Of a DNA stretch of 64,000 nucleotides, positions 1-58,309 are shown in pieces. The notes under the pieces are model-generated. The model did not search any database and was not told where the DNA came from. It saw only the letters and a program-made list of their open reading frames with translations. Source of the DNA: a virus; IMG/VR virus record IMGVR_UViG_3300036851_000497, positions 2,558 through 66,557 of that record; one strand, given 5' to 3'. How positions within the stretch are numbered: position 1 is the first letter of the stretch; each line of letters begins with the position of its first letter. The translations under genes and the position numbers were made by a program.

Positions 1-479
1 GGGCGCCCCAACGCTTTGAGTGCCTTTACATAGTCAGCCAAATAGCGACCGTCAAACGAAATATTCGTAAGCGGCGCTGGTTTGCTAGGCACGACGCGCT
101 GCCAATCTGGGAATTTGCCGTCAATCAATTTGACGATTTGCCGACCAGCCGCTGAAACCAAAGCGACTTCTTCGCACGCGCTGGCATCATCAGGGTAATT
201 GACGATGAAATCCCCCATACGGCATTTGGCGGTCGCTTTAACAAACGCCGCGGTCATCGTATCCCACGGCAGGATGAAATTCGTTCCATTAGGCGCATCG
301 TCACATTCTTCCTTGTGGCAGCGAATGATCGTCAGACGATGCCCGTCGGTTGCGACGAGCAGAGTATCTTTCTCGCGCACTTCGACATTCACGCCGTTCA
401 GATAATAGCGAACATCGTCTTTCGCGATGAACGGCTCAAGCGCGAGCAATTTGTTTGCGGGGATGGTGATAGTAGACAT
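1..479 (-). CDS. DNA polymerase III beta-clamp (DnaN)-like protein, runs off the window
   Basis: Not in the ORF track. Manual translation from ATG at 479 (SD AGGAG upstream) gives MSTITIPANKLLALEPFIAKDDVRYYLNGV...LVATDGHRL...KLIDGKFPDWQRVVP, matching DnaN motifs DVRYYLNG, VATDGHRL and DGRFPDY. Confidence 0.8.
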   Translation of the reverse strand, partial: MSTITIPANKLLALEPFIAKDDVRYYLNGVNVEVREKDTLLVATDGHRLTIIRCHKEECDDAPNGTNFILPWDTMTAAFVKATAKCRMGDFIVNYPDDASACEEVALVSAAGRQIVKLIDGKFPDWQRVVPSKPAPLTNISFDGRYLADYVKALKALGR

Positions 480-491
480 TTTCTTTCTCCT

Positions 492-519
492 ACCCCTGTT
501 TAACCCCGAGGTGCAGGTG
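492..519 (-). repeat. 28-nt leader motif copy 1 (putative pseudoknot)
   Basis: CACCTGCACCTCGGGGTTAAACAGGGGT directly upstream of the SD of the DnaN-like gene. Confidence 0.8.
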
Positions 520-574
520 TGGGCGAAAATCGCCGCGATTGCGCCCGCTTGTGGCAGGCGCAGGGTGCGGAGAC

Positions 575-916
575 TCAAGCAACTTTTTTGCGCGGTGCCG
601 CGAGGCGATTCGCGCTCAATGCACGTTGGAATTCTCTGCCGAATGTGTCCAACCCTTCGGCATAGCTGATGGTTTTGCCGATCGCTGGCGTGCGGCCGTC
701 GCGAAATTCGATGCCAAGCTGGACCGCGTCGCGCTCGAATTTGAATGAGAGGCAGCCGTGCGGTTGCGTCGTGCCGCTGTCCGGCACGAGCCATAGGCGG
801 CCAGTATTCGTTTCGAGTTGTTGCAGCACCGAAGCGTAGCCTGCGGCCTCGGCGGCTCTGGCGAGTGTCATGAGATAGAGTCTTTCGAGTTCGAGCATTC
901 CTGTTTCGCCGGTCAT
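575..916 (-). CDS. hypothetical protein
   Basis: ATG at 916 with AAGGAG SD; lies in the minus-strand operon. Confidence 0.7.
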   Translation of the reverse strand: MTGETGMLELERLYLMTLARAAEAAGYASVLQQLETNTGRLWLVPDSGTTQPHGCLSFKFERDAVQLGIEFRDGRTPAIGKTISYAEGLDTFGREFQRALSANRLAAPRKKVA

Positions 917-967
917 TTGATTTCTCCTTGAAGGAAATGGGGCGCCTCCCACGGCGCCCCTGTGATA

Positions 968-1957
968 TTAGGCAACGAGTTCCATGGCGCGGTGGAAGGC
1001 GGCGGCTTTGACCGCTTGCCCTTGACCGAACCAAGCTGATGCGAGGCGGTTGTCATCGATGCGCGCGCGCTTCTCGTGATCGTAGTATTGCGTGATCGCG
1101 TTGACGAACCCCCATGCCGTGCCGTTTGCGCTTTCAAGCTCTGACCCGAGCGCGCCACCGTTGTAAAGATCGATGATGCGATGCGTAGTCGGCAGTTTCG
1201 CGAATTCTTGCGCGTCCTGTTTTTTCTCAAAGACGTCCTCGAATACTTGATGCAGGACGGCGAGCGCTTTCGTGTCGCTCAGTTTGACCTTGGCAAGTTC
1301 CTTCGCTTGCTCGATGAAACTCGCCCAGCTTTGAACGACTAGCCCAAGCTCGGATTTAACCTTGGCGTGATCGAATTTGGTCGAATGCGGGACGCGCACA
1401 TGTTCGCGTGTTGATTCGCCATCGCGAATGGACATCGTAAGCGTGTTATTGCAAACGACGCGGACAGTGGTGAATTGCGCGGTGGTTGCGAGCGAGCCGT
1501 CGCACGCCGTCGCGAGCAGCAGATAGCAGCCCACCTTGTCAGCGGGGACGCTGACCGTGCCTTTGAGGCCCGTTTCGGCCAGTGCCCAGATTTTCTTGCC
1601 GCCGAAAAGCGAGCCGGCGGTGTGCAATCTGAATCCGCCCGCTTCGACGAGCTCGCGGAAGAATTCAAGCACCTCGCCCGGCTGGACGATTTGATACCGA
1701 TTAGAAACGATTGAGAGCGGCACTTGCGTATCCGAGCGGTAAAGAACGACGCGCTCAAGCCCATTAGCGTCAATGTAAACGTCGTTGACGCGCATGCCGA
1801 TGGGGGCGCGATTGATTGAGAAATTGAGACCTGCGGCTTGACGCCAAGAATCGACATCTGCGTCTGGCTGGAGCTCGGTCCCGAGATTATGCCAAGGCGT
1901 CTTGCCCACGAACGCCATGTTAGCGCGGCCATTGCTGAAATCTATTTCATGTGACAT
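968..1957 (-). CDS. DUF932 / TIGR03299 phage-plasmid protein
   Basis: Motifs PWHNLG, AGLNF, YQIVQP, TAGSLFGGKKIWALA, TTVRVVCNNTL, GTAWGFVNAITQYYDH. Confidence 0.88.
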   Translation of the reverse strand: MSHEIDFSNGRANMAFVGKTPWHNLGTELQPDADVDSWRQAAGLNFSINRAPIGMRVNDVYIDANGLERVVLYRSDTQVPLSIVSNRYQIVQPGEVLEFFRELVEAGGFRLHTAGSLFGGKKIWALAETGLKGTVSVPADKVGCYLLLATACDGSLATTAQFTTVRVVCNNTLTMSIRDGESTREHVRVPHSTKFDHAKVKSELGLVVQSWASFIEQAKELAKVKLSDTKALAVLHQVFEDVFEKKQDAQEFAKLPTTHRIIDLYNGGALGSELESANGTAWGFVNAITQYYDHEKRARIDDNRLASAWFGQGQAVKAAAFHRAMELVA

Positions 1958-1971
1958 TTGAATTTTCTCCT

Positions 1972-1999
1972 GCCCCTGAATGTCCCCGAGGCGCGGGTG
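1972..1999 (-). repeat. 28-nt leader motif copy 2 (putative pseudoknot)
   Basis: CACCCGCGCCTCGGGGACATTCAGGGGC followed by AGGAG SD of the DUF932 gene. Confidence 0.8.
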
Positions 2000-2025
2000 A
2001 TGCGGGATTTAGTCCTCGTGATTCG

Positions 2026-2229
2026 TTAATGGCGGATGAGTATGTCGAGACCGTGCGGTGTCCATATTATTCGTTTTATTGCGGGTATTCGGCGAAGTGT
2101 AGCTTCAATTCCGAATCGTTTAACGAGTCTGGCATAGTAAATTGCGACCATTTCGCGGTGATAGTCTGAGATTTTGAAGGCGTGCTGGCGAAGTTCCTCT
2201 GTCCAGCGGATTTGTTCCTGTCTGCTCAT
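2026..2229 (-). CDS. small hypothetical protein, first gene of left operon
   Basis: ATG at 2229 with AAGGA SD; MSRQEQIRWTEELRQH... Confidence 0.65.
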   Translation of the reverse strand: MSRQEQIRWTEELRQHAFKISDYHREMVAIYYARLVKRFGIEATLRRIPAIKRIIWTPHGLDILIRH

Positions 2230-2241
2230 TTTTGTCCTTTT

Positions 2242-2269
2242 ACCCCTGAAAGTCCCCGAGGCGCGGGTG
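2242..2269 (-). repeat. 28-nt leader motif copy 3 (putative pseudoknot)
   Basis: CACCCGCGCCTCGGGGACTTTCAGGGGT, about 11 nt downstream of the predicted -10. Confidence 0.8.
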
Positions 2270-2280
2270 TTACTGACTTC

Positions 2281-2308
2281 ATTGTATAGGAGCCGTAGGG
2301 GAATGCAA
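2281..2308 (-). promoter_or_regulatory. sigma70-type promoter of left operon
   Basis: TTGCAT-16 nt-TACAAT on the minus strand, divergent from terS. Confidence 0.65.
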
Positions 2309-2347
2309 GGACTATTAACCAACGTAAATCAAGGAGTTAGGCCATAA

Positions 2348-2809
2348 ATGAGAGGTCGAAAACCCGTCCCGACGCATCTGAAAATCATTCGGGGCAATCC
2401 CGGCAAACGGCCGCTTCCTGAGAACGAGCCGCAGCCCGAATTCGGCGCTGAGATGCCAGCATGGTTATCCGATGTGGCCAAAGAACATTGGCCCGCCATC
2501 GCGACGCAATTGGAAGAAATCGGTTTGTTGACTAAGCTCGACGCGCCCGCGCTCGCGATCTACTGTGAAGCATTCGTGCAATGGAAAAGCGCCAACGATA
2601 TCGTCATCAAACACGGACCCATCGTCAAACATCCGAAGACCGGCTATCCAATGCGGTCCCCATATTTGAGAGTCGCAAAGGACGCTTTCGATCAAATGAT
2701 CAAAATGATGAGCGAATTCGGGATGACGCCGACCAGTCGCGCCAGAGTCACAACCACGAAGAAAAAACAGGAGAAATCGCGTCTGCGCGCAGTATTGGAC
2801 GCGGGCTAA
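2348..2809 (+). CDS. terS: terminase small subunit, P27 family
   Basis: MRGRKPVPTHLKIIRGNPGKRPL N-terminus; EFGMTPTSRARV motif. Confidence 0.93.
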   Translation: MRGRKPVPTHLKIIRGNPGKRPLPENEPQPEFGAEMPAWLSDVAKEHWPAIATQLEEIGLLTKLDAPALAIYCEAFVQWKSANDIVIKHGPIVKHPKTGYPMRSPYLRVAKDAFDQMIKMMSEFGMTPTSRARVTTTKKKQEKSRLRAVLDAG

Positions 2810-2810
2810 T

Positions 2811-4514
2811 GTGCGCCCTCATATTGAAGCGCTTATTGGCTATGCGAAGGATGTTGTAGCCAAGAAGATCCCCGCTGGCAAATACGTCCGCCTTGCATGC
2901 AAGCGTCATCTTGACGATCTCAAGCGTTCGAAAAAAAAGAATTATCCCTATTACTTCGACGAAGCGGCGGCCGAGCGAATCTGCGCGTTTGCCGAATTAT
3001 TGCCGCACGTCAAAGGTAAGTGGGCGCGCGATAAAGAATTAATCCGATTACGGCCATGGCAATCATTCTGCCTTGGTGTGCCATTCGGCTGGAAGCGCAA
3101 GAGCGATGGCTTGCGCCGCTTCCGCGAAATCTACGATGAGATCCCGCGAAAAAACGCGAAATCAACAATGGGTGCCATCATTGGCGATTACATGCTGGGC
3201 TGCGACGGAGAATTTGGCGCAGAAGTCTACAGCGGCGCAACTACAGAGAAACAGGCGTGGGAAGTTTTCCGCCCAGCCAAACAAATGCTCGAGCGCGCAA
3301 CGGATATTCGCACGGAACTCGGCGTCGAAGTATGGGCGAAATCATTGGTGCGATTGGAGGATGAATCGCGCTTTGAGCCAATCATCGGCAATCCCGGGGA
3401 TGGTGCATCTCCGTCCTGCTCGATCATTGACGAATATCATGAGCACGATACGCCAAACATGTATGACACGATGACGACCGGCATGGGCGCACGTGAGCAG
3501 CCCATGAATGTCATCATTACGACCGCTGGCGATAATATCGCTGGCCCTTGTTACAACAAGCATTTGGAAGTCCGACGCGTGCTTGAAGGCGTCATCGAGA
3601 ACGATGAGCTTTTTGGAATCATCTACTCGATCGACGAAAAGGACGACCCTTTCGATCCCAAGGTTTTGCCCAAGGCAAACCCAAATTATGATGTCTCGGT
3701 TTTCGGGGACTTCCTGCAGGCGAAACAGCGCCAAGCCATCATCAATACGCACGAGCAGGCGAAGTTCAAGACTAAACACCTGAACGTCTGGCTGCAGGCG
3801 CGGGCCGGGCTTATCAATTTGAAGCAATGGCAAGTGGCTGGTGATGCCATGCTGAAAATCGAGGAATTACAAGGTGAGGACTGCTGGTTCATTCTCGACT
3901 TAGCGCAAAAGTCGGACTTATGTGCATTCGTACAACTCTTTCGCAAACGCTTAAACGGTCTCGATCATTGGTACTGCTTCGCGAAGCATTACCTACCGGA
4001 AAAAACGCTCGAAGAAGGGACAAGCAATCAGGCCGCCTATCGCAAGTGGATGATCGATGGGCATCTCACCGTGACCGACGGTGCCACGGTGGATTACGAA
4101 ACGATCAAGGAAGATGTGATTGAGCTCGCAAAGCGATTCAATCCGAAAGAAATCATTTATGACCCGTACAACGCGACGCATCTTGCACAAAGGATCCATG
4201 CGGAAATCGCGGAATCCATAGTGCTCGTTGAATATCCGCAGACACCGCAGAACATGGCGGTGCCAATGGATGAGATCAATACGGCGCTCAAAGACGCACG
4301 ATTGCATCACGACGCCAATCCTCTGCTCGCGTGGGAAGCGGCTAATACAGTGGGTCGGCCATCGAAAAAAGGACTAATGGTGCCCTCCAAGGAAAAACCG
4401 GAACAGAAGATTGACGGGATCGTAGCACTCACTATGGGCTTCGGTCGCGCGATAGTTCAAAAGGACGGCGGGTCAATTGATGACTTCCTCGCGCAACCGC
4501 TCACGGTCGGTTGA
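2811..4514 (+). CDS. terL: terminase large subunit
   Basis: Walker A IPRKNAKST, Walker B IIDEYHEH, ITTAG, nuclease motifs LDLAQKSDL and KIDGIVA. Confidence 0.96.
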   Translation: MRPHIEALIGYAKDVVAKKIPAGKYVRLACKRHLDDLKRSKKKNYPYYFDEAAAERICAFAELLPHVKGKWARDKELIRLRPWQSFCLGVPFGWKRKSDGLRRFREIYDEIPRKNAKSTMGAIIGDYMLGCDGEFGAEVYSGATTEKQAWEVFRPAKQMLERATDIRTELGVEVWAKSLVRLEDESRFEPIIGNPGDGASPSCSIIDEYHEHDTPNMYDTMTTGMGAREQPMNVIITTAGDNIAGPCYNKHLEVRRVLEGVIENDELFGIIYSIDEKDDPFDPKVLPKANPNYDVSVFGDFLQAKQRQAIINTHEQAKFKTKHLNVWLQARAGLINLKQWQVAGDAMLKIEELQGEDCWFILDLAQKSDLCAFVQLFRKRLNGLDHWYCFAKHYLPEKTLEEGTSNQAAYRKWMIDGHLTVTDGATVDYETIKEDVIELAKRFNPKEIIYDPYNATHLAQRIHAEIAESIVLVEYPQTPQNMAVPMDEINTALKDARLHHDANPLLAWEAANTVGRPSKKGLMVPSKEKPEQKIDGIVALTMGFGRAIVQKDGGSIDDFLAQPLTVG

Positions 4515-6118
4515 AAAAAAGATTATTGATGCACAACGCTGCAAATTATTTGCTAGTCCCAGCTGAAGAACAAAAATCGGGCTGGTTTCGCCGCCAATAT
4601 TTCAGATGGGGGAAGAAATTCAATCTCATCGATCCAGAATACTGGAAATGGAAATATGGCAAGAGCTGGCAGGGCGGCAGCGTTTATAGCGACGTCGAAG
4701 AAACATGGCTGCGCTTAAGTGCCGTCTGGTGTTGCGTGCGTTTGATCACCGAGACGATCGGAAGCCTGCCCATCGCGGTATATCGTCGTGATAGCCAAGG
4801 CAACAAGACCAAGGATCAAAATCATCCGGTAGCAAAATTGTTGCGTGCGCCGAATGAATTGATGACGCCGGTTGAATTTTTTGAGGCGATGCAAATGCGC
4901 CTCGTCACGTGCGGTAATTCATATGCGGAAATCACGCGCTCGGTTGTGAGCGGCGAACCTATTTCATTGACGCCGTTACGATCACAGCAGGTCAGCCGTG
5001 TACGCAAGGACGGCGTGCGATTCTATCGTTATTCCTACGATGGAAAAGTCAGAGAGATCCGCGAAGAGAACATGTTTCACTTACGCGGTTTCGGGGATGG
5101 TGAGTTGGGTTTGTCGCCAATCGGCTACGCACAAGAACAACTTGGTCTGGCCAAGGCACAGGAATCCTATGGGTCGAAGTTTTTCGAGAACAGTGCTCGG
5201 CCTGGCGGTTATCTCAAGGTGCCGCAATTTTTGAATCCCGCTCAGCGCACGCAGATGCTCGATGTATTCAATAATCTCCATCAGGGTGAGCCACACAAGT
5301 TGGGGTTGCTCGAGGGCGGCATTGATTACGTGGCGGCCGGCATTCCGCCAGATGAGGCCCAATTTATCGAAAGTCGGAAGTTTTCCGTGGTCGAGATCTG
5401 CCGCATTTTCCGAACGCCGCCGCATATGGTATTCGAGCTCGACAGAGCGACATTCTCAAATATTGAGAATCAAGGTATTGAATTTACAATGTATACGCTG
5501 CGCCCCTATCTCACGCGGTGGGAGCAGCGCATCAATAAAAAGCTTTTCGAGGCCGGCAGCGATCACTTCGCCGAATTCAATCTCGATGGATTGCTCCGCG
5601 GAGATTCAGCCGCGCGCACGGCTTATTATTCGGCGGCGCTGCAAAACGGATGGATGAACCGCAACGAAGTGCGCGCCAAAGAAAACATGAACAGGATCGA
5701 AGGCGGCGAGGAATATACGGTGCAGGTCAATCTGACTCCGCTCGATCAACTTGGTGTGCCAGCGGCACCGGTTCCGGCACCAGCCGCGAGAAGAGAGTTG
5801 CTTGAGGAGGCGCTTAAAGTTCTCTCATGGAAGATGCAGCCACCGCCGCAACCAATCGAAATGCGGCAACCTTTGAATATACATTTGAGCCATCCGGTGA
5901 CGATGCCGGAGCAGAAACCGGTGCAAGTTGATGTACGTGTTGAAGGCGCGAAAACTGATGTGACGCTTATCACTCCGCCTAAGCGCGCGGTTCTGACTGA
6001 AATCATTTCGCGCGATCCGCAAACATTGTTGGCGAAGCAGTCAATTCAGCGCGAAATAGACGAAGAGGAAGCGAATGCGCTCAAAGGCAATGGCGCACAT
6101 CCGCCTGAAGGAAATTAG
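4511..6118 (+). CDS. portal protein, HK97 family, with C-terminal extension
   Basis: SAVWCCVRLI, GLSPI, EICRIFRTPP, FSNIE, LLRGD, GWMNRNEVRAKEN. Confidence 0.95.
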   Translation: MKKRLLMHNAANYLLVPAEEQKSGWFRRQYFRWGKKFNLIDPEYWKWKYGKSWQGGSVYSDVEETWLRLSAVWCCVRLITETIGSLPIAVYRRDSQGNKTKDQNHPVAKLLRAPNELMTPVEFFEAMQMRLVTCGNSYAEITRSVVSGEPISLTPLRSQQVSRVRKDGVRFYRYSYDGKVREIREENMFHLRGFGDGELGLSPIGYAQEQLGLAKAQESYGSKFFENSARPGGYLKVPQFLNPAQRTQMLDVFNNLHQGEPHKLGLLEGGIDYVAAGIPPDEAQFIESRKFSVVEICRIFRTPPHMVFELDRATFSNIENQGIEFTMYTLRPYLTRWEQRINKKLFEAGSDHFAEFNLDGLLRGDSAARTAYYSAALQNGWMNRNEVRAKENMNRIEGGEEYTVQVNLTPLDQLGVPAAPVPAPAARRELLEEALKVLSWKMQPPPQPIEMRQPLNIHLSHPVTMPEQKPVQVDVRVEGAKTDVTLITPPKRAVLTEIISRDPQTLLAKQSIQREIDEEEANALKGNGAHPPEGN

Positions 6119-41698: not shown

Positions 41699-41873
41699 TT
41701 TGCCTACGTTTTCGCTCAAAACGCATTTGCACTTCACGTCCTTGCCAAGATTTCATGCGGTCTCCGCGCAACGCCTTTGTTGTGCAGCGCAGACAAATAC
41801 CGCTCGGCACAACACCGCTCATGCCACATTCAGCGCACCTTTTCCCCATATCAATCGTGACATCTGCTTTCAT
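41688..41873 (-). CDS. small Zn-finger protein
   Basis: CAECG...CLRC. Confidence 0.5.
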   Translation of the reverse strand: MKADVTIDMGKRCAECGMSGVVPSGICLRCTTKALRGDRMKSWQGREVQMRFERKRRQNEI

Positions 41874-42922
41874 GCAAATTTCCCCCTCTCCGGCTCCGGC
41901 AAGCGAGCGTCGCTCAACACTTCCCGATACTGATCCAAATATCCTTCAGTCGTCGCTATATTCCGGTGCGCCGCCGCTTTCTTGATCTCTTCCCTGCTGT
42001 ACCCGAGCCGATCCATCTGCGCGAGCGAGTAGGCGCGAATGTCGCGCGTGGTGACGCCTTCCGCTGCAGCTTTTGCTCTGGCTCGCTTCCACATCGAATT
42101 CAAGCCTGACTTCGTGAACGCGGTTCCGCCGGCCGTTTGAATGATGAAAGCGTTCCCGCCAGGAAGCGCCTTCACCTTGGCGAATGATCGCGCGCGCTCC
42201 AGCGTTTGCTGGATTTCTGCGGTAATCAGCACCGACACATCGGCACCGCTTGAATCTTCAGTCTTGGTCGGCGTGAAATGAATCCGCCCCTCGCTAATCT
42301 GCGACTCGCGCAATAGCCTGATCTCGGTCGGCCGCTGGCGCGTGAGGTAGGTTAGGCGCAGAAAGCACTGGCCGATTGGCGGCAGCGCATCGTAGAGCGC
42401 CCAATAGATTTTTGCAGTGAAACGACCTTTGCGTTTCTTCGGCGCCTTGAGCCGGATTTCCGCGCAGGGATTGACTTTGATCCAATCGTTGCGGTAGACG
42501 ACGCACCAAGAAAAGAAAGTGGAAAGCCGCGCTTTATAGCTGCGCCGCGCGGTTGGCACTTCGGCAAAGTTCGAGAGGAAATCCAGCACGTCTTTCGGAG
42601 TGACCTCGCCGACGTCGAACTCGATGAAGGATTGCTCGATGGTCTCAAACATCCGCTCATACTCGCGGCGGACATCATAGGACTTGAGCTCGGGGAGCTT
42701 GGCCTTGAGAAAGGCGGCGATGCACTTTCCCATGTTGCCGCCGACTTTGGCATCTTCGCCGAGAAAGGCAGCGAGCGCATCGAGGAGCGCCTGTTCGCCG
42801 TCCTCAACCTTCGTGAGCGGATTCCACTTCTGCTTCGGTCGCCCCGTCTTCGGATTGCGCTCGGCGAGATCTTGGATGTAATAGTGGCGATTGTGTGATT
42901 GGACAACGCGAGTGATCTTCAT
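41870..42922 (-). CDS. int: tyrosine integrase
   Basis: TRQRPTEI (R), TTRDIRA (HxxR variant), AAHRNIATTEGY (H, Y). Confidence 0.9.
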   Translation of the reverse strand: MKITRVVQSHNRHYYIQDLAERNPKTGRPKQKWNPLTKVEDGEQALLDALAAFLGEDAKVGGNMGKCIAAFLKAKLPELKSYDVRREYERMFETIEQSFIEFDVGEVTPKDVLDFLSNFAEVPTARRSYKARLSTFFSWCVVYRNDWIKVNPCAEIRLKAPKKRKGRFTAKIYWALYDALPPIGQCFLRLTYLTRQRPTEIRLLRESQISEGRIHFTPTKTEDSSGADVSVLITAEIQQTLERARSFAKVKALPGGNAFIIQTAGGTAFTKSGLNSMWKRARAKAAAEGVTTRDIRAYSLAQMDRLGYSREEIKKAAAHRNIATTEGYLDQYREVLSDARLPEPERGKFA

Positions 42923-45251: not shown

Positions 45252-46252
45252 TTGCTTTCGATTAATTCGGCGCGGCGGGATTTGAAGCGTTCTCTCGCTT
45301 TCACGCGCTCTTCCTCGTTATCAAGCGCTTCGATGAGCCCGCCATCTGTATCGAGCACGTCGATGTCAATCGTTTTCTCGAAGCGCTCAAGCAACCATGC
45401 CAGTAACACTTTCGGAGCTTCGTTCTTTGGCTCTACACCGGCGTCCTTTGCCTTGCGCAAGCGTTGCTTGACGGCTTCAGTTTGCGAACTCGGTTGTTCC
45501 GCAGATGATTTCGGTGGAAACGCCTGCTCGACTGTGGTTTCGCCTTCCCTGATCGCAGTCAAAAGTCCGCGCAAAATGACTAGATGCTCCAGCGTGATGT
45601 CCTCGCGTCCAGTCACATTCAGCGTTTCAAAAATTCGTTCTTCAGAAACGCCAAAACCTTGGAATGCCTTCATCGCATCTGCGCGGCGGTTCTCGAGCGT
45701 CTTGAAATCGCCCATCACGGTTTTACGCGCGGCGGCGTAGACGTCATTCCAGAATGCCTTGGGAATTCCTTTCATGATGGCATTGCGTAACGCGATCGAG
45801 CATGCCGCATTGGCGGTAACGCTGATCATGTCGGCTTTATAGCGTCGCCCATGCTTATCCGTGATCCGGCGCCTGATTTCGTATCCAATTTTGACGTTTC
45901 TCTGCATGTCCCAAAAAATCCCTTGTGCAGTGACGAATTGTTCGCCTTCATCAACGATGCGCGCAGCGGCATAGCAATTGCCCCAAGCCGATGCCAACAC
46001 TTCGGCGAGCCGTGCGCTCGGTCCTTCGATGACCTTGTTATCACGCGGCAGCGCATAGAAACATTCCTCGGCGATGGTTTCGTTGAGTGAGACCATGGCC
46101 AGTGCTTCGTCGCGGAATTGCTTGATGGATCGCGGATAGCGCTTGGCGGTAGTGACCTGCATATTGATCTCGCTGGCATTTAATTGCGCGAGCGTTGAGG
46201 CGTCCATTTCCACGACGGGTAAATCGCGTTCAAATGTTTCTGGCTGGTTCAT
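45248..46252 (-). CDS. putative single-strand annealing / recombination partner of YqaJ
   Basis: AKRYPR, YALPR...IEGPSARLAE..WGN; coupled to exonuclease gene. Confidence 0.55.
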   Translation of the reverse strand: MNQPETFERDLPVVEMDASTLAQLNASEINMQVTTAKRYPRSIKQFRDEALAMVSLNETIAEECFYALPRDNKVIEGPSARLAEVLASAWGNCYAAARIVDEGEQFVTAQGIFWDMQRNVKIGYEIRRRITDKHGRRYKADMISVTANAACSIALRNAIMKGIPKAFWNDVYAAARKTVMGDFKTLENRRADAMKAFQGFGVSEERIFETLNVTGREDITLEHLVILRGLLTAIREGETTVEQAFPPKSSAEQPSSQTEAVKQRLRKAKDAGVEPKNEAPKVLLAWLLERFEKTIDIDVLDTDGGLIEALDNEEERVKARERFKSRRAELIESK

Positions 46253-47130
46253 GACTTCAATCCTTTCAGCAAAAAGGTTCTTACTCCGGGCGAGGTTTTA
46301 ATGAATTGGTCGTAAATCTGCGGATGCGCTTCTCTGAAGGCTAATTTATCAAAGCGATGAATTTCACGGCATTGCTTCCAAGTTGCCCATGGCTTTCCTC
46401 GATACACAAGCGTGTCGGCTTCGCCCATGAATCGCTTGATGAAGAGTTCTAATTGTTTTTCTTCTATTTCGCATGTTTTCATCTGCGCACGTAATGAGGC
46501 GAGCTGCTGCACGGCAACCATGACTTCAAAATTGGCCTCGATTTCTATCGCCCTGGATGTGCGATAGCGCAATTGAACATCCTCAAGCGTGACCGGCTCA
46601 GGCGGCTCTTGGCGCTCGACATGCCACCAGAATTCGCGCTCGGATTCGGTGATAAGTTCAATCAATTCGTCATCGCGTTCTATCCGATAAAGTTTGAAAT
46701 CGCGGCCGGCGATGAGTACCGGAACGTAAGCTAGAACGAATCCAGTAACTGCGAATTGATGTTGGATTTGGATGACATACGATTGCGGAATTTGATCCGT
46801 TTGCTCTTCGCCAAAATCATGCGCGGTCGCACTTGTTTTAGCTTCGACGATTGCGCCATTGGCAATACCGTCAATCGTTGCCCAACGCCAAGGGTTTGCT
46901 GGGTCGATAATCTTTTCCTGATGGCGAGTGACCGGCATTCCGGTTTGCTGAGTGAAGGTGTCAAGCACGATTGGCTCAAGCGCCTTGCCGATATGCATGG
47001 CGAGGGTGGTCGGTTGTTGTGGCAATTGGCCGAGTTTTTCGAGGAAGAGTTCAAGTGGTGTTTTCCAAGGCGAAATGCCGAGCGCTGCCGGTGCATCGGA
47101 GGCGCCTAAACCATCGCGGCGGTCAGTCAT
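46249..47130 (-). CDS. YqaJ-like (lambda exonuclease family) nuclease
   Basis: GLGASDA, SPWKTP, GKALEP, ATIDG, VEAKT, YVIQIQHQ. Confidence 0.92.
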   Translation of the reverse strand: MTDRRDGLGASDAPAALGISPWKTPLELFLEKLGQLPQQPTTLAMHIGKALEPIVLDTFTQQTGMPVTRHQEKIIDPANPWRWATIDGIANGAIVEAKTSATAHDFGEEQTDQIPQSYVIQIQHQFAVTGFVLAYVPVLIAGRDFKLYRIERDDELIELITESEREFWWHVERQEPPEPVTLEDVQLRYRTSRAIEIEANFEVMVAVQQLASLRAQMKTCEIEEKQLELFIKRFMGEADTLVYRGKPWATWKQCREIHRFDKLAFREAHPQIYDQFIKTSPGVRTFLLKGLKS

Positions 47131-47473
47131 ACTCCACCAGCGTGGACTCAGACTGCTTAGGCTCCGCGCGCTCGCCGAGAATGAATTCAACATCAATGAC
47201 GGCACCGGGTTCAAGCTCGTCGAAGTTGTCGATGATGTGCCTGTGCGCGACGCGCATGGTGCGATTTGGCCAACTGTAACGGTCGTAATTCAGCGGGCCG
47301 CCAGCGCCGTCCAATTTCGCCAGCAGCACATAGCTCGATTGTTTCTCTGGCGTGCCGCCATACCCTGCGCGCGCAAGCAGATAGCCATCGGCCTCGCATC
47401 CCGGTTCAAGCTTGATGGCAAGCGCGGGAATAAAAGTTGCCGCGTCGCGAATCTCAAAAGTTTTGGTGATCAT
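47123..47473 (-). CDS. hypothetical phage protein
   Basis: EIRDAATFIP...GAVIDVEFILGE. Confidence 0.65.
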   Translation of the reverse strand: MITKTFEIRDAATFIPALAIKLEPGCEADGYLLARAGYGGTPEKQSSYVLLAKLDGAGGPLNYDRYSWPNRTMRVAHRHIIDNFDELEPGAVIDVEFILGERAEPKQSESTLVEYD

Positions 47474-47692: not shown

Positions 47693-49183
47693 TCATAAGA
47701 CATCACGCAATTTTGATTGCTTGAAATCCTGCGGCATTCTGCTGAGATAGTCGCACAGCATCTTGGCAAATCGATCTATCGGCTGGAGTTCTGAGTATCT
47801 GGCTAGCCTGTGATTTGTCCATTGCAGATAAGAACACAACGCCGTGCAAACCATTGCCCATAGCGCAGAAACCTTAAGCGGCTTCGTGATAGCCTCTTTG
47901 ACGTAGTTCAGATCAATATTGAGCTCAATAATAAAAGTGCCGGCTTCCTCTGTTACTCGATGCGCATCTTCTCCCAAGGATCTTGGAATTATCTTAAGCA
48001 GACGAGTAGGCTGATCATTTTCTTTTCTTTGTTTGTCACCATCGCGATCGCCTTCCTGTTTGCTGATTAGTTTGCCGCGTGGTTCCGGGGTTGGCTTGCC
48101 ATATGTCTGATGAGGCGTTGTGATCGGTATGATGTCCATCCCGCCATACTTGCCACCTGCCCGTGTTGTTCTCATAACCTGAGAAAGACGCGCACCTATG
48201 TCATCAAGACATAATTCTAGCTCGAGCTCTTTCTCATAATCGGATAACAATTCCAATAGGTCTTTACACTGTTCGTAGATGGCGTCGAGCAATTCATCCC
48301 TATACAGGGCAACAGCGGTCTTATTTGTCGAAAGACGAGTCTTCCATGTATCCGCTAAATCTACTCGGCCATAAAAACTTATCGGCAGCGCGCGGCGATC
48401 CTTCCAAGGATTGCGGTCGATCTCGATAACGCGGTGACCGAAATTGATAAACAATGCATTGTGGCGACTCTCGTATTTTTCCTTGGCACCAATGAACACG
48501 CCATAGGCGGCTCCTTTGATCTCGCCGCTGAAAGATCGCTTATGTGTCAATATAGGTTCTGGTGGTTCGTCGGTCTCTACCTCGTAAATGACTGGATACT
48601 TTCTTCGCGTATCCGTGATCTTGATGTGCCGCCCCTCACGCAGCGCAGGCGCAAATGTCATTCCGAGCAAGCGACACAACGCGTCCATATGGAGCCGAGA
48701 CCTGCCCGCATGCACTTTCTTGATGGTGATAGTTGTGCCGCTGCGTCGAGTAGTGCGCTTCCCCGAGCCGGCATATTCGGATGGCCATTTTCTAGCCCGC
48801 GACCAGTTAACTGTGTGCTGATGCAGAAAGCCCTTTTTTATGGTCTCAACGCTTATTTCATAGCCGAGCCATAGTGACGCTGCTTTAGCGCCAACACCAT
48901 AAAGACCTATGTCACTTTTAGAAAATTTGGATTCAGATTGCCCAAGTCTAAATAGCGCGTTGACATTTTGAAGGCCGCTGCCGTCATCCTCTATGGTGAT
49001 TTCGTTGGGACCAATCGTGAATGAGATGACAGAAGCTGCCCCCGCATCGGCGGCAAAACTGTTATCCACGAATTCTGCCAATGCCGCGGACCAGCCGAGG
49101 TCTGCATTTACATAGGATCGGATGATATGTAGGTCAGGGATTAACTGTCCCAATGTCTTCGAATGGTGTGTCTTGCGTTTCAT
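47693..49183 (-). CDS. GHKL (MORC/HATPase_c_3-like) ATPase
   Basis: ALAEFVDNS (N box), IEDDGSG (G1), IGLYGVGAK (G2), SGTTITI (G3). Confidence 0.85.
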   Translation of the reverse strand: MKRKTHHSKTLGQLIPDLHIIRSYVNADLGWSAALAEFVDNSFAADAGAASVISFTIGPNEITIEDDGSGLQNVNALFRLGQSESKFSKSDIGLYGVGAKAASLWLGYEISVETIKKGFLHQHTVNWSRARKWPSEYAGSGKRTTRRSGTTITIKKVHAGRSRLHMDALCRLLGMTFAPALREGRHIKITDTRRKYPVIYEVETDEPPEPILTHKRSFSGEIKGAAYGVFIGAKEKYESRHNALFINFGHRVIEIDRNPWKDRRALPISFYGRVDLADTWKTRLSTNKTAVALYRDELLDAIYEQCKDLLELLSDYEKELELELCLDDIGARLSQVMRTTRAGGKYGGMDIIPITTPHQTYGKPTPEPRGKLISKQEGDRDGDKQRKENDQPTRLLKIIPRSLGEDAHRVTEEAGTFIIELNIDLNYVKEAITKPLKVSALWAMVCTALCSYLQWTNHRLARYSELQPIDRFAKMLCDYLSRMPQDFKQSKLRDVL

Positions 49184-49815
49184 CTGGATGACTCCTTTTG
49201 CCCTTTCTCCCATGCCTTGCGTAAATCATCGAAGTTGAGTCCCTTAGCGATAATCAAAGCCACTACCTCGCGCAATAGTTCGGACGGTTTGAGGCGCATG
49301 TAAATCGCATGCGCCCCAATTACCGCTTTCTTTGGTGAAACCACTGGTTTCACCGGTGTCTTCTTTACCCGCAACCGCTTTACCTGCTCTCTGGTCATCA
49401 GCGGATGAATTTTTTCCTTTGCGGCGGCAAGTTCATCATTGCTCAATAGCGATAGCTCATACAGGGTTCCCCAGTGAGGTGGTAGTTCTTTTGGTGAGAA
49501 TGCATTCTCACCAGTGCCATGTAGCGAGAAACGGTGATACACCTTGATGAGCCGATCTGCGGTATCACTCCCGAATGGGAATGCGTTATCGGCGACTTTG
49601 GTGCGACCAGTGGTCTCACCAAAGGCCGCAAGCCACTTGTGTTCATCCGATTGAAGCACGATCTTAAGGCCGTTCAAGCGCGAACCCATCTCGATCCATG
49701 CTTGCGCCGTCTGGTTTACGAGCCGCCAACATAAGTCGGCCGTTTTTTTGATGGTGATGTGCTCTGGCTCTGGTGCTGCGAATTGCACGACGACGCCTGC
49801 TGACTTCCGATTCAT
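49180..49815 (-). CDS. DUF3102-like protein
   Basis: WIEMGSRL..LK, FPFGSDTADRLIK, LPPHWGTLYELS; GGAGG SD before ATG 49815. Confidence 0.65.
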   Translation of the reverse strand: MNRKSAGVVVQFAAPEPEHITIKKTADLCWRLVNQTAQAWIEMGSRLNGLKIVLQSDEHKWLAAFGETTGRTKVADNAFPFGSDTADRLIKVYHRFSLHGTGENAFSPKELPPHWGTLYELSLLSNDELAAAKEKIHPLMTREQVKRLRVKKTPVKPVVSPKKAVIGAHAIYMRLKPSELLREVVALIIAKGLNFDDLRKAWEKGQKESSR

Positions 49816-53025: not shown

Positions 53026-53352
53026 TTATCGCATTTCAGGTCCGGTTGGTTTTTTCTTCCTTTTTGCGCGCGCTTCTTTAAGGGCACTCTCTTTGCTTTG
53101 ACGATATTGCAGCAATAAAGCTAATTCGTCCTGAGGCAACGAGGTTTCGTCGGCCCTATCCATCCATCCACGTTGCTGCCCTATTTTTAACTCAATTTTC
53201 CTCGCTACCCTATTACCCATATTGCGGGTGCCGTTTTTAATCTGACTCAGATAGGAAGCGGCAACGCCGGTTTTATCTTCAAGCGCCTCAAATGTTTTGT
53301 ATTCCGCTCGGAGTGCGAGCAATTTCCGACGCCGGATTTCCTGAATCTCCAT
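53026..53352 (-). CDS. cI: CI-like repressor without S24 peptidase domain
   Basis: RRRKL..L...SYLSQIKNG.RNMG...ARKIE......GWMD; divergent from cro. Confidence 0.8.
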   Translation of the reverse strand: MEIQEIRRRKLLALRAEYKTFEALEDKTGVAASYLSQIKNGTRNMGNRVARKIELKIGQQRGWMDRADETSLPQDELALLLQYRQSKESALKEARAKRKKKPTGPEMR

Positions 53353-53363
53353 GAGCGCATTAC

Positions 53364-53430
53364 ATAGCAGTTTGCTATGCGTAGGAATACGCAAAGTGCT
53401 ATTGCTATCGTAATAGCGTTTTGCTACTAT
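53364..53430. promoter_or_regulatory. OR operators and pR
   Basis: ATAGCAGTTTGCTAT (53364), TACGCAAAGTGCTAT (53388), ATAGCGTTTTGCTAC (53413); TTGCTA-17 nt-TACTAT. Confidence 0.78.
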
Positions 53431-53452
53431 CCGAGTCGCTAGTATATCGTCC

Positions 53453-53659
53453 ATGGATGCAAAAACATTTTTAGAGACCTTCGGGAAGGAAGAAGCGGCC
53501 CGCGTCGCTGAACGAGCGGGGACAAATTATGCGTATTTCAGCCAAATCGCATACGGTCATCGTCGTCCCTCTGTCGATTTGGCTCACGAACTCGTTATCG
53601 CTTCTAACAAGCGAATGAGCTTTGAGCTTTTGTTGCAACCAAAAGTGCGTAGTGCATAA
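53453..53659 (+). CDS. cro: Cro-like regulator
   Basis: AERAGTNYAYFSQIAYGHRRPS; position. Confidence 0.82.
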   Translation: MDAKTFLETFGKEEAARVAERAGTNYAYFSQIAYGHRRPSVDLAHELVIASNKRMSFELLLQPKVRSA

Positions 53660-55533: not shown

Positions 55534-55778
55534 ATGGAATGTGAACGAGTGTCCGCAGTCCGCTTGCGTATTCCTGGTGGAGATCTCTTGGATCAATACA
55601 TTTTCGTGGACGAGAAACATGCTACGGAATGGTTGAAACAAAGGTTTGTTAACGACGAAGAGTATTTCGTTGAGCTAGGCAGTGTGGAAAAGACACCGTG
55701 CTGCGGAAGGCGACTGAACTTTCAAGTTAGTCAGAGCATGAAGCCATCCGAATACTTACGGATAAAGCGGGAATGGGT

Positions 55779-57152
55779 ATGAATTATCTCTCGCTCTTCT
55801 CGGGAATCGAGGCCGCTACCGTCGCTTGGAAGCCATTCAGATGGCATGCAGTCGCATTTTCCGAAATCGAGAAATTCCCTTGTGCGCTACTCAAACATCA
55901 TTACCCGGACACACCCAATTACGGCGATGTGACGGAGTTCGCAAAATGGCCAGATCATGACGCAATTGACCTTATCGTTGGCGGCTCCCCATGCCAATCC
56001 TTCAGTGTCGCCGGACTTCGGCGCGGGCTGGATGATCCGCGTGGCAACCTCACGCTCACCTATCTTGCAGTTGTTGAGCGATATAAGCCCTGCTGGGTGG
56101 TATGGGAAAACGTGCCCGGAGTTTTGTCTGACGACCGAGGACGGACTTTTGGAGCCTTTCTCGGAATCTTGGGGCAACTCGGGTATGGGTTCGCCTACCG
56201 AGTTCTTGACGCTCAATTCTTCGGAGTTCCCCAACGGCGGCGCCGCGTGTTCGTTGTCGGCCATCTTGGAGACTGGCGATGTGTTGCAGCGGTACTTTTT
56301 GAGCGCGAAAGCCTGTCGTGGAATCCTGCGCCGAGCAGAGAAGCGCGGGAAGATATTGCCCCAACAATTAGCGCGCGCACTCAAGGCGGCGGCGGACTCG
56401 GAACCGACTTCGACTGCGATGGTGGATTAGTGGCTGACACTGTTCGGAGTCATCCGCGTCCCGGCTCAAACTCAGTAGGTCTCATAACTGGCGCTATCAG
56501 CAGCAAGTGGTCGAAGGGCACAGGCGGTCCCGCAGGAGATGAATGCTACAACTTGGTTACGCATGCATTACTGGCTGATGGATTCGATGCGGGCGAGGAT
56601 GGGACGGGGCGGGGAACACCATTGGTCGCCTCATTTCATCCCAACGATCCGGGCAAACACAACGACGCGAATACAGCACCTGCATTGCGCGCCGGACACA
56701 ACGGCGGTTGTTATGGCAGTAGGGCAGCAATCGCCTTCTCCTGCAAAGACCACGGCGCGGATATGAGCGAAATCGCCCCGAGTCTGCGCGCGATGGGGCA
56801 CGATGGAAGCCATGCGAATGCTGGCGGGCAGGTGGCGATCGCATTTCACGAAAATCAGCGCGCTGAAGTTACCTTGAACGATACAGCCGGTTGTCTCAAG
56901 GTCGGCGGTGGCAAGCCTGGTCAGGGGTATCCGGCAGTTGCGCACGGCATATCGGTACGCCGACTCACGCCCGTCGAGTGTGAAAGATTGATGGGCCTGC
57001 CGGATAACTACACGCTGATTCCCTATCGCGGCAAGCCAGCTGCAGATGGACCGCGTTACAAAGCGCTCGGCAATTCTTTCGCCGTTCCTGTGGTGCGGTG
57101 GATCGGCGAACGCATTCAGTTTGTTGATTCAATCGTGAGAAAGGCGGCATGA
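55779..57152 (+). CDS. C5-cytosine DNA methyltransferase
   Basis: LSLFSGI, GGSPCQSFS, WENVPG, PQRRRR, RRLTPVECERL, LGNS. Confidence 0.95.
   Translation: MNYLSLFSGIEAATVAWKPFRWHAVAFSEIEKFPCALLKHHYPDTPNYGDVTEFAKWPDHDAIDLIVGGSPCQSFSVAGLRRGLDDPRGNLTLTYLAVVERYKPCWVVWENVPGVLSDDRGRTFGAFLGILGQLGYGFAYRVLDAQFFGVPQRRRRVFVVGHLGDWRCVAAVLFERESLSWNPAPSREAREDIAPTISARTQGGGGLGTDFDCDGGLVADTVRSHPRPGSNSVGLITGAISSKWSKGTGGPAGDECYNLVTHALLADGFDAGEDGTGRGTPLVASFHPNDPGKHNDANTAPALRAGHNGGCYGSRAAIAFSCKDHGADMSEIAPSLRAMGHDGSHANAGGQVAIAFHENQRAEVTLNDTAGCLKVGGGKPGQGYPAVAHGISVRRLTPVECERLMGLPDNYTLIPYRGKPAADGPRYKALGNSFAVPVVRWIGERIQFVDSIVRKAA
55957..56430 (+). CDS. nested alternative-frame beta polypeptide (M.EcoHK31I-like)
   Basis: SLSAILETGDVLQRYFLSAKACRGILRRAEKRGKILP..L..AL, nested in the +1 frame of the MTase. 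Confidence 0.7.
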   Translation: MTQLTLSLAAPHANPSVSPDFGAGWMIRVATSRSPILQLLSDISPAGWYGKTCPEFCLTTEDGLLEPFSESWGNSGMGSPTEFLTLNSSEFPNGGAACSLSAILETGDVLQRYFLSAKACRGILRRAEKRGKILPQQLARALKAAADSEPTSTAMVD

Positions 57153-57382: not shown

Positions 57383-57591
57383 AACAACTCGCCCGCATCC
57401 TCGACGAACTCGCGAAGGCGCCGGCAACGGTAGAAGACTTGGCCGAAGAAACGGGGTTGCGTACTGAAGCTGTGCGCTCAGCTCTTCACGAATTGCAAAA
57501 GGACGGATATGCCCAAGTCATGGGCTCGTTTCCGAATGTACGTGGCCGAGGGCGTGAGCGGAATATTTGGCGGGTGAGCGATGCCATTTGA
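57379..57591 (+). CDS. winged-helix protein
   Basis: TVEDLAEETGL...VRSALHEL. Confidence 0.7.
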   Translation: MKQLARILDELAKAPATVEDLAEETGLRTEAVRSALHELQKDGYAQVMGSFPNVRGRGRERNIWRVSDAI

Positions 57592-58309
57592 AAAAGTTGA
57601 GATCGGCGAAGCGATTTTGCATCGCGGAGATTGCTTGGAAATCCTGCCGACCTTATCCAAGGTGGATGCGGTGATTACTGATCCGCCATATTTCTTACCA
57701 GCATCGCATTATCAGACGCGGACAAAGTTTCGCCGTACCTTTTCCGACCTTGGAATTCTTGAACACTGGGCGCGTTCTTTTTTCACAGAACTCGACCGGA
57801 TCGTTTCTCTGGATGGGTCTTTATATATTTTCTGTGATGGACAGAGTTATCCGCTTTTTTATTGGCATGCATACGGAATATGTAAATCATGCCGTCCTTT
57901 GATTTGGGACAAGTTAAATTCTATAAACGGTTACGGATGGAGACACCAGCACGAGATCATTTTGTGGTGCGAGCGTTGCGACGCTAAACCGCTTCCGACT
58001 GGCGATGGCGATGTACTTAGAACACCGCCAGTCGGAATTGAAGTGAGAAATCATCCGGCAGAGAAACCAGTAGAGTTGACGATAGCGCTCTGCAAAAAAA
58101 CATATGGCGTAATCCTTGATCCCTTCATGGGTTCTGGCACAACCGGCGTTGCCTGTATGAATCTAGGTCGCAAGTTTATCGGCGTGGAAATAGAGGAACG
58201 CTATTTCCAGATTGCGTGCGAACGAATTGAAGCGGCACAACGTCAACAGCGCCTATTTGAGCACGAGCCCTGCTCGCGGTCCGAAACCGCGAGTCTCCCA
58301 GGTATGTAG
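57581..58309 (+). CDS. N4/N6 DNA methyltransferase (beta class)
   Basis: ITDPPY, HPAEKP, ILDPFMGSGTTG. Confidence 0.94.
   Translation: MPFEKVEIGEAILHRGDCLEILPTLSKVDAVITDPPYFLPASHYQTRTKFRRTFSDLGILEHWARSFFTELDRIVSLDGSLYIFCDGQSYPLFYWHAYGICKSCRPLIWDKLNSINGYGWRHQHEIILWCERCDAKPLPTGDGDVLRTPPVGIEVRNHPAEKPVELTIALCKKTYGVILDPFMGSGTTGVACMNLGRKFIGVEIEERYFQIACERIEAAQRQQRLFEHEPCSRSETASLPGM

Follow-up and report, generated by a model that had tools for sequence, protein, structure and literature searches.

A short structured leader element that looks like a portable translation-start signal of Proteobacteria phages

The window analyzed here, a 64,000-nt stretch of phage DNA (bases 2558–66557 of the 66,557-bp virus record IMGVR_UViG_3300036851_000497), carries directly in front of three genes of one leftward operon three copies of a 28-nt element that, judged by comparison of sequences, looks like an undescribed, portable translation-start signal of the phages of Proteobacteria. 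At least 134 distinct copies of the element were collected from viral contigs and prophage-like DNA of Alpha-, Beta- and Gammaproteobacteria; all counts for the family are lower bounds, taken from scans that list a sample of matches. The copies have in common a covarying stem, invariant sequence blocks able to pair with each other, a covarying pair that closes this second helix, a fixed spacing to the ribosome-binding site and a link to a start codon. The two helices can be combined in an H-type pseudoknot.

The three copies were found exactly as quoted in a preliminary description of this DNA, on the minus strand at 492–519 (copy 1), 1972–1999 (copy 2) and 2242–2269 (copy 3). Their placement just 5′ of the Shine–Dalgarno (SD) sequence was also borne out: copies 3, 2 and 1 end 12, 14 and 12 nt before the ATG codons that start at 2229, 1957 and 479, and an SD-like AAGGA or AGGAG lies between each copy and its ATG. 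Comparison of the three copies showed a sharp loss of conservation at both ends of the element. When at most three mismatches were allowed, a degenerate pattern matched the window three times, against a mean of 0.00 matches across 100 dinucleotide shuffles, and the core pattern of the element again matched only three times, with no match in the shuffles. The full virus record gave no forward and three reverse matches to the pattern, and a fuzzy search with 8 substitutions allowed revealed no fourth copy. In an unfiltered search with the covariance model the three copies obtained the scores listed in Table 1, and the runner-up in the window reached 7.4 bits (E = 3.5). We number the window copy as C1 A2 C3 C4 C5 G6 C7 G8 C9 C10 U11 C12 G13 G14 G15 G16 x17–x21 C22 A23 G24–G27 Y28. 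In these terms, the base differences between the copies are those noted earlier (G8/C28 in copy 2, A8/U28 in copy 1, G8/U28 in copy 3), and the linker is variable. The stop codon of the upstream open reading frame (ORF) precedes copy 2 by 26 nt (end of the 67-aa ORF) and copy 1 by 55 nt.

The statement that only three copies support the element holds for this phage but not for the family. An exact-pattern scan of viral contigs returned at least 118 stretches, mostly chance matches, 15 of which had the full extended motif together with an SD and a start codon. When prokaryotic species were scanned with one genome each, 57 stretches came up, and the 16 copies that passed the SD-and-start filter were labelled Orrella, Hyphomicrobium, Bradyrhizobium, Acidocella, Sulfuritalea, Rhodocyclaceae, Sterolibacterium, Burkholderiaceae, Rhodoplanes and several metagenome-assembled genomes. 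In further scans a different part of the element was left free each time. The common filter asked for a loop-like core, a GGGG-like tail, an SD-like word, a start codon 8–20 nt further on and an ORF of at least 35 aa or one cut by the end of the locus; it yielded 140 distinct copies, and removal by eye of six dubious ones left the 134 of the family alignment. A copy is called genuine below when it passes the SD-and-start filter and, in the set with A8, when its first stem can pair as well. Covariation statistics and counts treat the copies as independent of shared ancestry.

Five other phage records searched whole gave two matches each at E ≤ 0.01. In four of the five both matches share a strand and lie 0.3–2.8 kb apart; the fifth has a weak second match (17.6 bits), some 21 kb from the first. 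Among cultured phages, blastn of copy 2 against INPHARED returned one spurious 18-nt match. The pattern scans also picked up a coding stretch common to actinobacterial chromosomes (loci L128, L146, L165, L169, L172 and others), CCTGCACCTCGGGGCG.CGCAGGGGCGGCACCGTC, which is a chance match within a conserved gene segment and not the element; it illustrates how GC-rich coding DNA contaminates such scans.

Stem 1 (S1), a hairpin of x2–x5 with x14–x17, is proven by comparative data, one base off the register drawn earlier. A scan that left the stem free and fixed only C7–U11, C22–Y28 and GGAG recovered 32 new copies, in which the pairs 5–14, 4–15, 3–16 and 2–17 hold in 32/32, 32/32, 31/32 and 24/32 cases; these copies contain 15 stem sequences, for example CCU/AGG, GUC/GAC, AGG/CCU and UCG/CGA. 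In the family alignment the pairs of columns 8–17, 7–18 and 6–19 hold in 134, 134 and 123 of the 134 copies. CG, GC, UA, AU and GU pairs were all seen, and changes on both sides occurred at all four pairs, with 139 double-change cells for the corrected stem on the 134 copies. The covariation score of S1 was 0.297, against 0.076 ± 0.009 for shuffles, none of 500 being as high; sliding the partner strand by one column, or other slid controls, gave 0.049 or less. U.G appears in 12 copies at one pair alone; G.U pairs are possible only on the sense strand, the strand of the mRNA. The stem as first drawn (3–15, 4–14, 5–13 and 6–12) had to be abandoned. Its pairs hold in 17, 7, 13 and 32 of the 32 stem-free copies, and on the 134 copies it scored 0.060 versus 0.059 for shuffles, 216 of 500 being as high, with recovery only at a slide of +1. 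The window copies are able to form CCCG/CGGG; related copies, however, show the conserved helix to be one base out of this register.

The second helix involves the loop of this hairpin and the 3′ tail of the element. The loop G6–G13 reads G-CGCCUCG in 129 of 134 copies, with G6 present in 133, and the tail is GGGGC in 123, GGGGU in 7 and UGGGC in 4, which makes GGGGY in 130/134. Stem 2 (S2) joins loop bases G8–C12 with G24–Y28 (GCCUC/GGGGC) and is pairable in 100% of the cells of the alignment, U11.G25 being found in 132/134 copies. Apart from the pair 8–28, changes within S2 are limited to U11 to C in two copies, which makes a better pair, and an insertion of GU at the far end in four. The invariance of loop and tail is partly by construction, because the scan patterns and regular expressions fixed several bases. 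With positions 8–11 and 25–28 left free, 21 of 59 stretches were genuine, all with GCCU/GGGC bar one GCCC and one GGGU, and both exceptions can still pair. The fully unbiased set came from a scan anchored on an SD, an ATG and the codons of x-N-H-P-N-R, a peptide discussed below, and it agreed with the other copies. The motif was present at 53 of 84 distinct starts, and 262 of the 265 S2 cells in these copies were pairable; the other 31 starts had unrelated upstream sequence, without intermediate forms.

The change from G-C to A-U at the loop/tail pair 8–28, pointed out earlier between two window copies, was confirmed in the family. A scan for A8 in viral and metagenome contigs, with position 28 free, gave 112 distinct rows among the matches listed. 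All three S1 pairs and a start codon were present in 14 of them, and three of these (G28, a GC-rich linker, GTG or TTG starts) were set aside as they looked like chance matches in coding sequence; counting them would make the A8 set 9 U, 3 C and 3 G. The 11 copies kept have U28 in 8 cases and C28 in 3 (9 and 3 with window copy 1), while among the 133 copies with G8 there are 126 with C28 and 7 with U28, which corresponds to an odds ratio of 54 (Fisher p = 3.6e-8, copies treated as independent). The A8-U28 state occurs with 7 different S1 sequences. The remaining four pairs are invariant, so that the case for S2 is made by one covarying pair, by invariance and by energy. As to the last, RNAalifold, which is unable to draw pseudoknots, selects S2 as the nested consensus at −7.54 kcal/mol; taken separately, S2 and S1 have median energies of −7.5 and −5.0 kcal/mol, and single-sequence minimum free energy (MFE) folds engage the S2 strand in 115 of 134 copies.

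S1 and S2 have no bases in common and the 3′ strand of S1 is located inside the loop of S2, hence the two helices can coexist only as a pseudoknot. An H-type pseudoknot is the consistent reading of a covarying S1 and a stronger S2, and the same topology, put forward in the preliminary description for a structured cis-element directly 5′ of the SD, finds support in the covariation of S1 and, for S2, of the single pair 8–28. S1 has 2–5 bp and S2 5 bp; loop L1 comprises 2 nt (G6, C7), L2 1 nt (G13) and L3 3–9 nt (modes 7 and 4–5). By general pseudoknot geometry, loops of such lengths should let both helices form together. The linker is not conserved as U-rich, being only 3–5 nt long, typically "AUCA", in 42 of 134 copies. 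Two other folds were considered and rejected. An inner mini-hairpin (C7-G13, G8-C12, CCU triloop) meets uncompensated changes, namely C7 to A in two copies, G8 to A, and A/A for G6/G13 in one copy. Sequestration of the SD by the 5′ strand of S1 was seen in MFE folds of CCC-type copies only; it is impossible in the other stem variants and therefore not conserved.

The position of the element is tightly constrained on its 3′ side. S2 ends 0–2 nt before a short SD, mostly GGAG, and the distance from C28 to the start codon is 10–14 nt in 130 of 134 copies. At loci taken independently of the motif (668 kb), a start codon with an ORF was found 8–18 nt after 75 of the 82 core matches; among 45 core matches unselected for downstream features, 38 were followed by a start and an ORF, and the other 7 look like chance. 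On the 5′ side no conservation was detected beyond x2, the composition being random, and there is no −10 box at a fixed distance; a TANNNT box with a TTG box 10–30 nt upstream occurs in a subset of copies. In a complete 44-kb phage genome with terminal repeats (L372), the −10 box of a repeated operator/promoter unit is followed after about 7 nt by one copy, and 8 nt separate another copy from the stop codon of the ORF upstream. At the left end of the same genome (1–5062, minus strand) four operator-like palindromes, CTATCATnGATAG, overlap TTGAC(A/T) −35 boxes; each repeat heads a small gene unit, and the pseudoknot is found at one of the four promoter-proximal genes.

A consensus scan gave no promoter-like or terminator-like site at the three window copies. 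An intrinsic terminator was rejected, as the stem has 3–4 bp with an 8-nt loop, compared with the GC-rich stem of at least 5 pairs and U run of a terminator, and the U-rich linker is not conserved. Integron attC sites, which have long imperfect inverted repeats with GTTRRRY cores and stand 3′ of cassettes, were likewise dismissed: the three copies contain no GTTRRRY core, the element is only about 28 nt long, and it is tied to the downstream start and not to the end of the upstream gene.

The genes that follow the element are diverse. Among 131 downstream ORFs compared with Pfam, 32 matched DUF6948 and 4 Peptidase_M78; DUF932, DUF7666, RadC, DUF3489, DUF6874, LPD29, DUF1488 and the beta-clamp domain were each found in one or two ORFs, and the rest had no Pfam match. 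After removal of the first 12 residues, 130 ORFs fell into 85 clusters, and proteins from 33 of these clusters start with M-x-N-H-P-N-R. This heptapeptide continues with S or K (for example in loci L012, L126, L239, L273 and L275). It is carried by 38 of 68 ORFs in the sets unselected for it. When DUF6948 genes were fetched via internal peptides, 47 had both motif and peptide, 22 had neither and none was discordant (69 classifiable genes of 80 loci, after removal of duplicates and of two loci without the core). Third-base changes and the use of both CGN and AGR arginine codons indicate that selection acts on the peptide, and the synonymous third-base changes and CGN/AGR switches also rule out pairing of the NHPNR codons with the element.

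Motif and peptide are separable: 31 of the 84 peptide starts lack the motif, and 58 of the 131 motif ORFs, including all three window genes, lack the peptide. The window phage has no DUF6948 (best tblastn E = 0.01 over 24 aa) and no such peptide in any frame, and DUF6948 was therefore rejected as the partner of the element. A DUF6948 protein gave no tblastn match among phages or among plasmids. As to its role, the heptapeptide may be a scar of recombination, or it may act as a tag or as a nascent-peptide signal. The idea that the element serves as homology for the shuffling of gene cassettes gained indirect support, namely its presence before 85 unrelated clusters, 33 of which share their first seven residues.

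Partners of the element were sought by all-against-all clustering of 5,994 ORFs from 124 loci. No phage protein family was common to these loci, the best being present in 36 of 124, and none was shared with the window phage; since these loci are fragments (up to 15 kb), a distant gene could have escaped. The absence of a common phage family points to a factor common to all hosts, e.g., the ribosome. The commonest neighbour of motif genes (36/124 loci, e.g., L343) is an ORF of about 110 aa with a GYGYGY/GSGDG repeat followed by a Cys/His-rich motif, and it is absent from the window phage. In three host genomes the loop sequence CCUC, extended to CACCUC in A8 copies, is identical to the 3′ tail of 16S rRNA, ...GGAUCACCUCCUUU; in window copy 1 this CACCUC makes six letters in common with that tail. 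The complement of the loop is absent from all three host 16S genes, even with one mismatch, and the complement of CAGGGGC has no exact occurrence in them.

We favour, with somewhat less than even confidence, the view that the element is an insulated, pre-organised ribosome-binding module acting in cis on translation initiation. Sense-strand structure, spacing locked to SD and AUG, independence of context and a location at 5′ ends or between cistrons together argue for a function in translation initiation on mRNA. As the loop equals the anti-SD core and the tail GGGG(C/U) is an SD-like run, S2 would imitate, within one molecule, the SD/anti-SD helix beside the real SD. The pseudoknot, if it forms in vivo as we suppose, would pack all sequence 5′ of the SD into one compact body, in which the CCUC loop, a copy of the 16S anti-SD, would tie up the upstream SD-like G-run. 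The true SD and AUG would thereby stay single-stranded at a fixed distance, and the small ribosomal subunit, the presumed target, would meet the same pre-organised landing site whatever flanks the element. The body might in addition contact the 30S platform, by docking or by stacking, and translation would be promoted rather than repressed. Phages could use such a module again and again to express accessory genes that are exchanged horizontally, whether the gene opens a transcript or follows another cistron, with recombination at the common module probably being a by-product.

Several observations weigh against this view. The retrieval method itself accounts for part of the invariance, and double changes in S2 are confined to one of its five pairs. 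Three A8 copies have a mismatched C28. Among the rows listed with a base other than C at position 10 or 9 (5 and 15, respectively), none had the stem together with a proper start, and the MFE z-scores of single copies, 0.0 to 1.2, were not significant. Moreover, the invariance exceeds what a purely architectural role would need, and a specific partner (protein, small molecule or RNA) fits it at least as well; the view also gives no reason why a phage should keep an upstream G-run and then mask it.

Such a partner is the essence of an operator or switch, in which the pseudoknot would bind a host or phage RNA-binding protein, a small RNA or a small molecule and so turn translation of accessory genes on or off, the partner perhaps blocking the adjacent SD or trapping the 30S subunit. 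We regard this as possible, if on the doubtful side. A freely covarying stem beside an invariant loop, junction and tail is the pattern of RNAs recognised by a ligand or a protein, no variants at C9 or C10 occurred among the matches listed, and the element is optional within a phage (in L372 it precedes only some promoter-proximal genes), as expected of a regulon. The smallest pseudoknot riboswitches, which also abut the SD, resemble it in size and topology. Yet the SD lies outside both helices, with no conserved alternative fold that sequesters it; the 85 unrelated clusters, mostly of unknown function, show no metabolic theme; no riboswitch model of Rfam matches at E ≤ 10; and the conserved unpaired bases are few (G6, C7, G13, C22 and A23), a small number for a ligand pocket. 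Co-occurrence of a phage protein with the element does not go beyond the 36 of 124 loci mentioned, and DUF6948, for its part, is missing from the window phage. The partner should hence be universal among hosts: the ribosome, in which case the switch merges with the favoured module, or else a regulator or a small molecule.

A bolder and, in our estimation, unlikely extension would unite the element with the first seven codons (M-x-N-H-P-N-R) in a portable "expression cassette" of about 70 nt that Proteobacteria phages graft onto unrelated accessory genes, the core being a receptor for a conserved cellular partner. This partner might be the 30S platform, contacted via the SD/anti-SD-like helix, or a small molecule, which would place the element among the smallest riboswitch classes; the N-terminal peptide would be the second half of the control, as a nascent-peptide signal or a targeting or degradation tag. 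A role in RNA stability or processing, with the fold protecting or marking the 5′ end of a cistron as a stabiliser, an RNase barrier or a processing signal and the closeness to the SD being secondary, seems improbable to us. Copies only a few nt from a probable transcript start (L372 and the candidate window promoter at 2281–2308), the subset with TANNNT and TTG boxes upstream, the internal copies at cistron boundaries and an unrelated GC-rich hairpin in the equivalent place of the window operon (939–960) would all fit it. A stabiliser, however, requires structure and not invariant sequence, has no need for the 10–14 nt spacing to the start kept by 130 of 134 copies, and should have little reason to move together with the first seven codons.

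We consider it highly improbable that the element acts at the level of DNA, as a promoter for a special sigma factor or a phage RNA polymerase, a hairpin promoter, an operator, or a homology at recombination boundaries of cassettes. It does border many genes, and the seven residues shared by 33 unrelated clusters suggest repeated recombination in or just after it; a GG-N10-GC spacing can also be read by inspection in the canonical copy. Against this, the compensatory changes in S1 and the G.U pairs confined to the sense strand are unexpected at double-stranded DNA sites, conserved −35 and −10 boxes at a fixed distance are missing, and within operons copies follow an upstream stop codon by 8–55 nt. 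In the window copies with U28, a sigma-54-like −12 box would be left without its GC, and no RNA polymerase was found among the 10 window ORFs scanned with Pfam (the 915- and 607-aa ORFs included, a 1282-aa ORF of the tail region being outside the scan). Homology alone also fails to explain purifying selection on at least 13 bases across three bacterial classes.

Among known RNA elements, the preQ1-I riboswitch, an H-type pseudoknot of about 34 nt abutting the SD, offers an obvious comparison. The element would share with it a 4–5 bp stem, a loop that pairs with the 3′ tail, very short L1 and L2, an L3 of 4–9 nt and a 3′ helix ending at the ribosome-binding site; both combine a covarying first stem with invariant core bases. 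Unlike preQ1-I, the element has no match in Rfam 15 at E ≤ 10, its linker is U-rich or "AUCA" and not an A-rich tail, its SD lies outside the second helix, and its downstream genes are heterogeneous phage accessory genes, not those of one pathway. The Rfam 15 search (window 1–3000, both strands, E ≤ 10) found nothing on the element and gave only three weak, unrelated matches off it, to freshwater-2 and two microRNA models.

Pseudoknots that overlap the ribosome-binding site or lie directly 5′ of it and act on initiation are known from rpsO/S15 of E. coli, the S4 alpha-operon leader and the T4 gene 32 leader; they occupy the 30S platform or nucleate a repressor. These operators serve the autoregulation of a single gene, each with a dedicated protein partner; in contrast, the element is present in many copies, before many genes and in many phages, and no cognate protein was found in 124 loci. 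The lambda-type boxB of nut sites has a 5-nt GNRA-like loop, accompanies boxA, occurs once per early operon away from ribosome-binding sites and acts in antitermination. It shares with the element a covarying stem of 4–5 bp with an invariant loop in early transcripts of phages, but the element has an 8-nt loop that pairs with a downstream tail, and its copies are locked to an SD and a start codon.

The start-associated sequences (SAS) and extended SAS (ESAS) of Cluster K mycobacteriophages are in other respects comparable. According to the available text of Pope et al. 2011 (PMC3203893), the SAS, GGGATAGGAGCCC, is 13 bp long, includes the SD and occurs in 11–19 copies per genome, and the ESAS inverted repeats have little hairpin support, with departures that are not compensatory. 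As far as that text describes them, SAS resemble the element in being short, asymmetric repeats in one orientation just before the starts of a subset of genes from different families, conserved across related phages, absent from the host, and proposed to act in translation initiation, perhaps via a host or phage factor. By the same account they differ from it: the three copies and the family consensus are unrelated in sequence to GGGATAGGAGCCC, and the element lies upstream of the SD, has a compensatory stem, belongs to phages of Proteobacteria and is present in 2–3 copies per genome compared with 11–19.

Searches of the full-text literature with motif and peptide strings gave only unrelated primer matches among those listed. 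No paper on DUF6948 was found, and queries combining DUF932 with RNA motif or pseudoknot, or pseudoknot with SD, prophage, structured RNA or covariation, gave nothing relevant among the matches listed. The available text of Weinberg et al. 2017 (PMC5737381) and of a 2026 preprint (10.64898/2026.09.22.753630) describes no such motif, and the supplementary drawings of 224 motifs could hold one.

The coordinates of the element and of other features of the window are collected in Table 1. The operon with all three copies runs leftward, diverging from the gene of the small terminase (2348–2809, PF05119). The first ORF behind a copy (67 aa) had no match to any known family, and the beta-clamp-like gene extends past the left edge of the window. 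A putative sigma-70 promoter read by eye upstream of copy 3 may start the transcript about 5 nt before this copy; its −35 box matches at 3 of 6 positions, and the site was not listed by the consensus scan.

The ORF of 113 aa (575–916) is the sole internal gene of the operon that has its own intergenic leader without the pseudoknot. Directly before its SD, at 939–960 on the minus strand, lies a perfect 8-bp GC hairpin, GGGGCGCC GUGGGA GGCGCCCC, whose resemblance to freshwater-2 of Rfam is weak and non-significant (20.5 bits against a gathering score of 49.9, E = 4.9). The 55-nt spacer between this ORF and copy 1 (520–574, minus strand) contains a GC-rich imperfect inverted repeat, GGCGCAATCG CGG CGATTTTCGCC, which could be an attenuator or processing hairpin just upstream of copy 1. 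The gene content of the window together with bases 1–2557 of the record is that of a temperate tailed phage, in which the operon with the motif is an insert in the opposite orientation between the end of the rightward genes and the terminase.

Table 1. Copies of the element, their helices and other features of the window.
Feature	Position	Strand	Remark
Copy 3, first in leftward operon	2242..2268	minus	38.6 bits
Copy 3, S1	2265–2267 with 2254–2256	minus	structure from family alignment
Copy 3, loop G-CGCCUCG	2257–2264	minus	
Copy 3, S2	2258–2262 with 2242–2246	minus	closing G8.U28 wobble
Copy 2, before DUF932 gene	1972..1998	minus	45.7 bits
Copy 2, S1	1995–1997 with 1984–1986	minus	
Copy 2, S2	1988–1992 with 1972–1976	minus	G8-C28
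Copy 1, before beta-clamp-like gene	492..518	minus	35.8 bits
Copy 1, S1	515–518 with 503–506	minus	A-U, C-G, C-G, U.G
Copy 1, S2	508–512 with 492–496	minus	A8-U28
Possible sigma-70 promoter of leftward operon	2281..2308	minus	TTGCAT-16 nt-TACAAT; read by eye
67-aa ORF	2029–2229	minus	SD-like GGA 2235–2237, ATG 2227–2229
329-aa DUF932 gene	968..1971	minus	SD AGGAG 1967–1971, ATG 1955–1957; PF06067, E = 1.3e-61
220-aa DNA polymerase III beta clamp-like gene	1..491	minus	SD AGGAG 487–491, ATG 477–479; PF02767, E = 4e-12
P27-type small terminase, large terminase, portal	2348–6118		
Integrase	41870–42922	minus	
YqaJ-like exonuclease	46249–47214	minus	
GHKL-type ATPase	47693–49213	minus	
Helix-turn-helix (HTH) protein	53026–53454	minus	
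C5 and N6/N4 DNA methylases	55773–57152 and 57581–58309		

The element would add to the known structured leader RNAs an undescribed and widespread family of well over a hundred distinct copies, with an architecture that is unusually clear for about 30 nt, a freely covarying stem being combined with an invariant helix that would imitate the SD/anti-SD duplex. Being short, self-contained and present before at least 85 unrelated genes in three classes of Proteobacteria, it is a natural candidate for a context-independent ribosome-binding part. It would also help to approach the expression or joint regulation of shuffled accessory genes in temperate phages, and its tight link to a common N-terminal heptapeptide on unrelated proteins is directly testable. 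If the element and the first seven codons do form a cassette, this would be a new way for phages to standardise and jointly regulate horizontally acquired genes.

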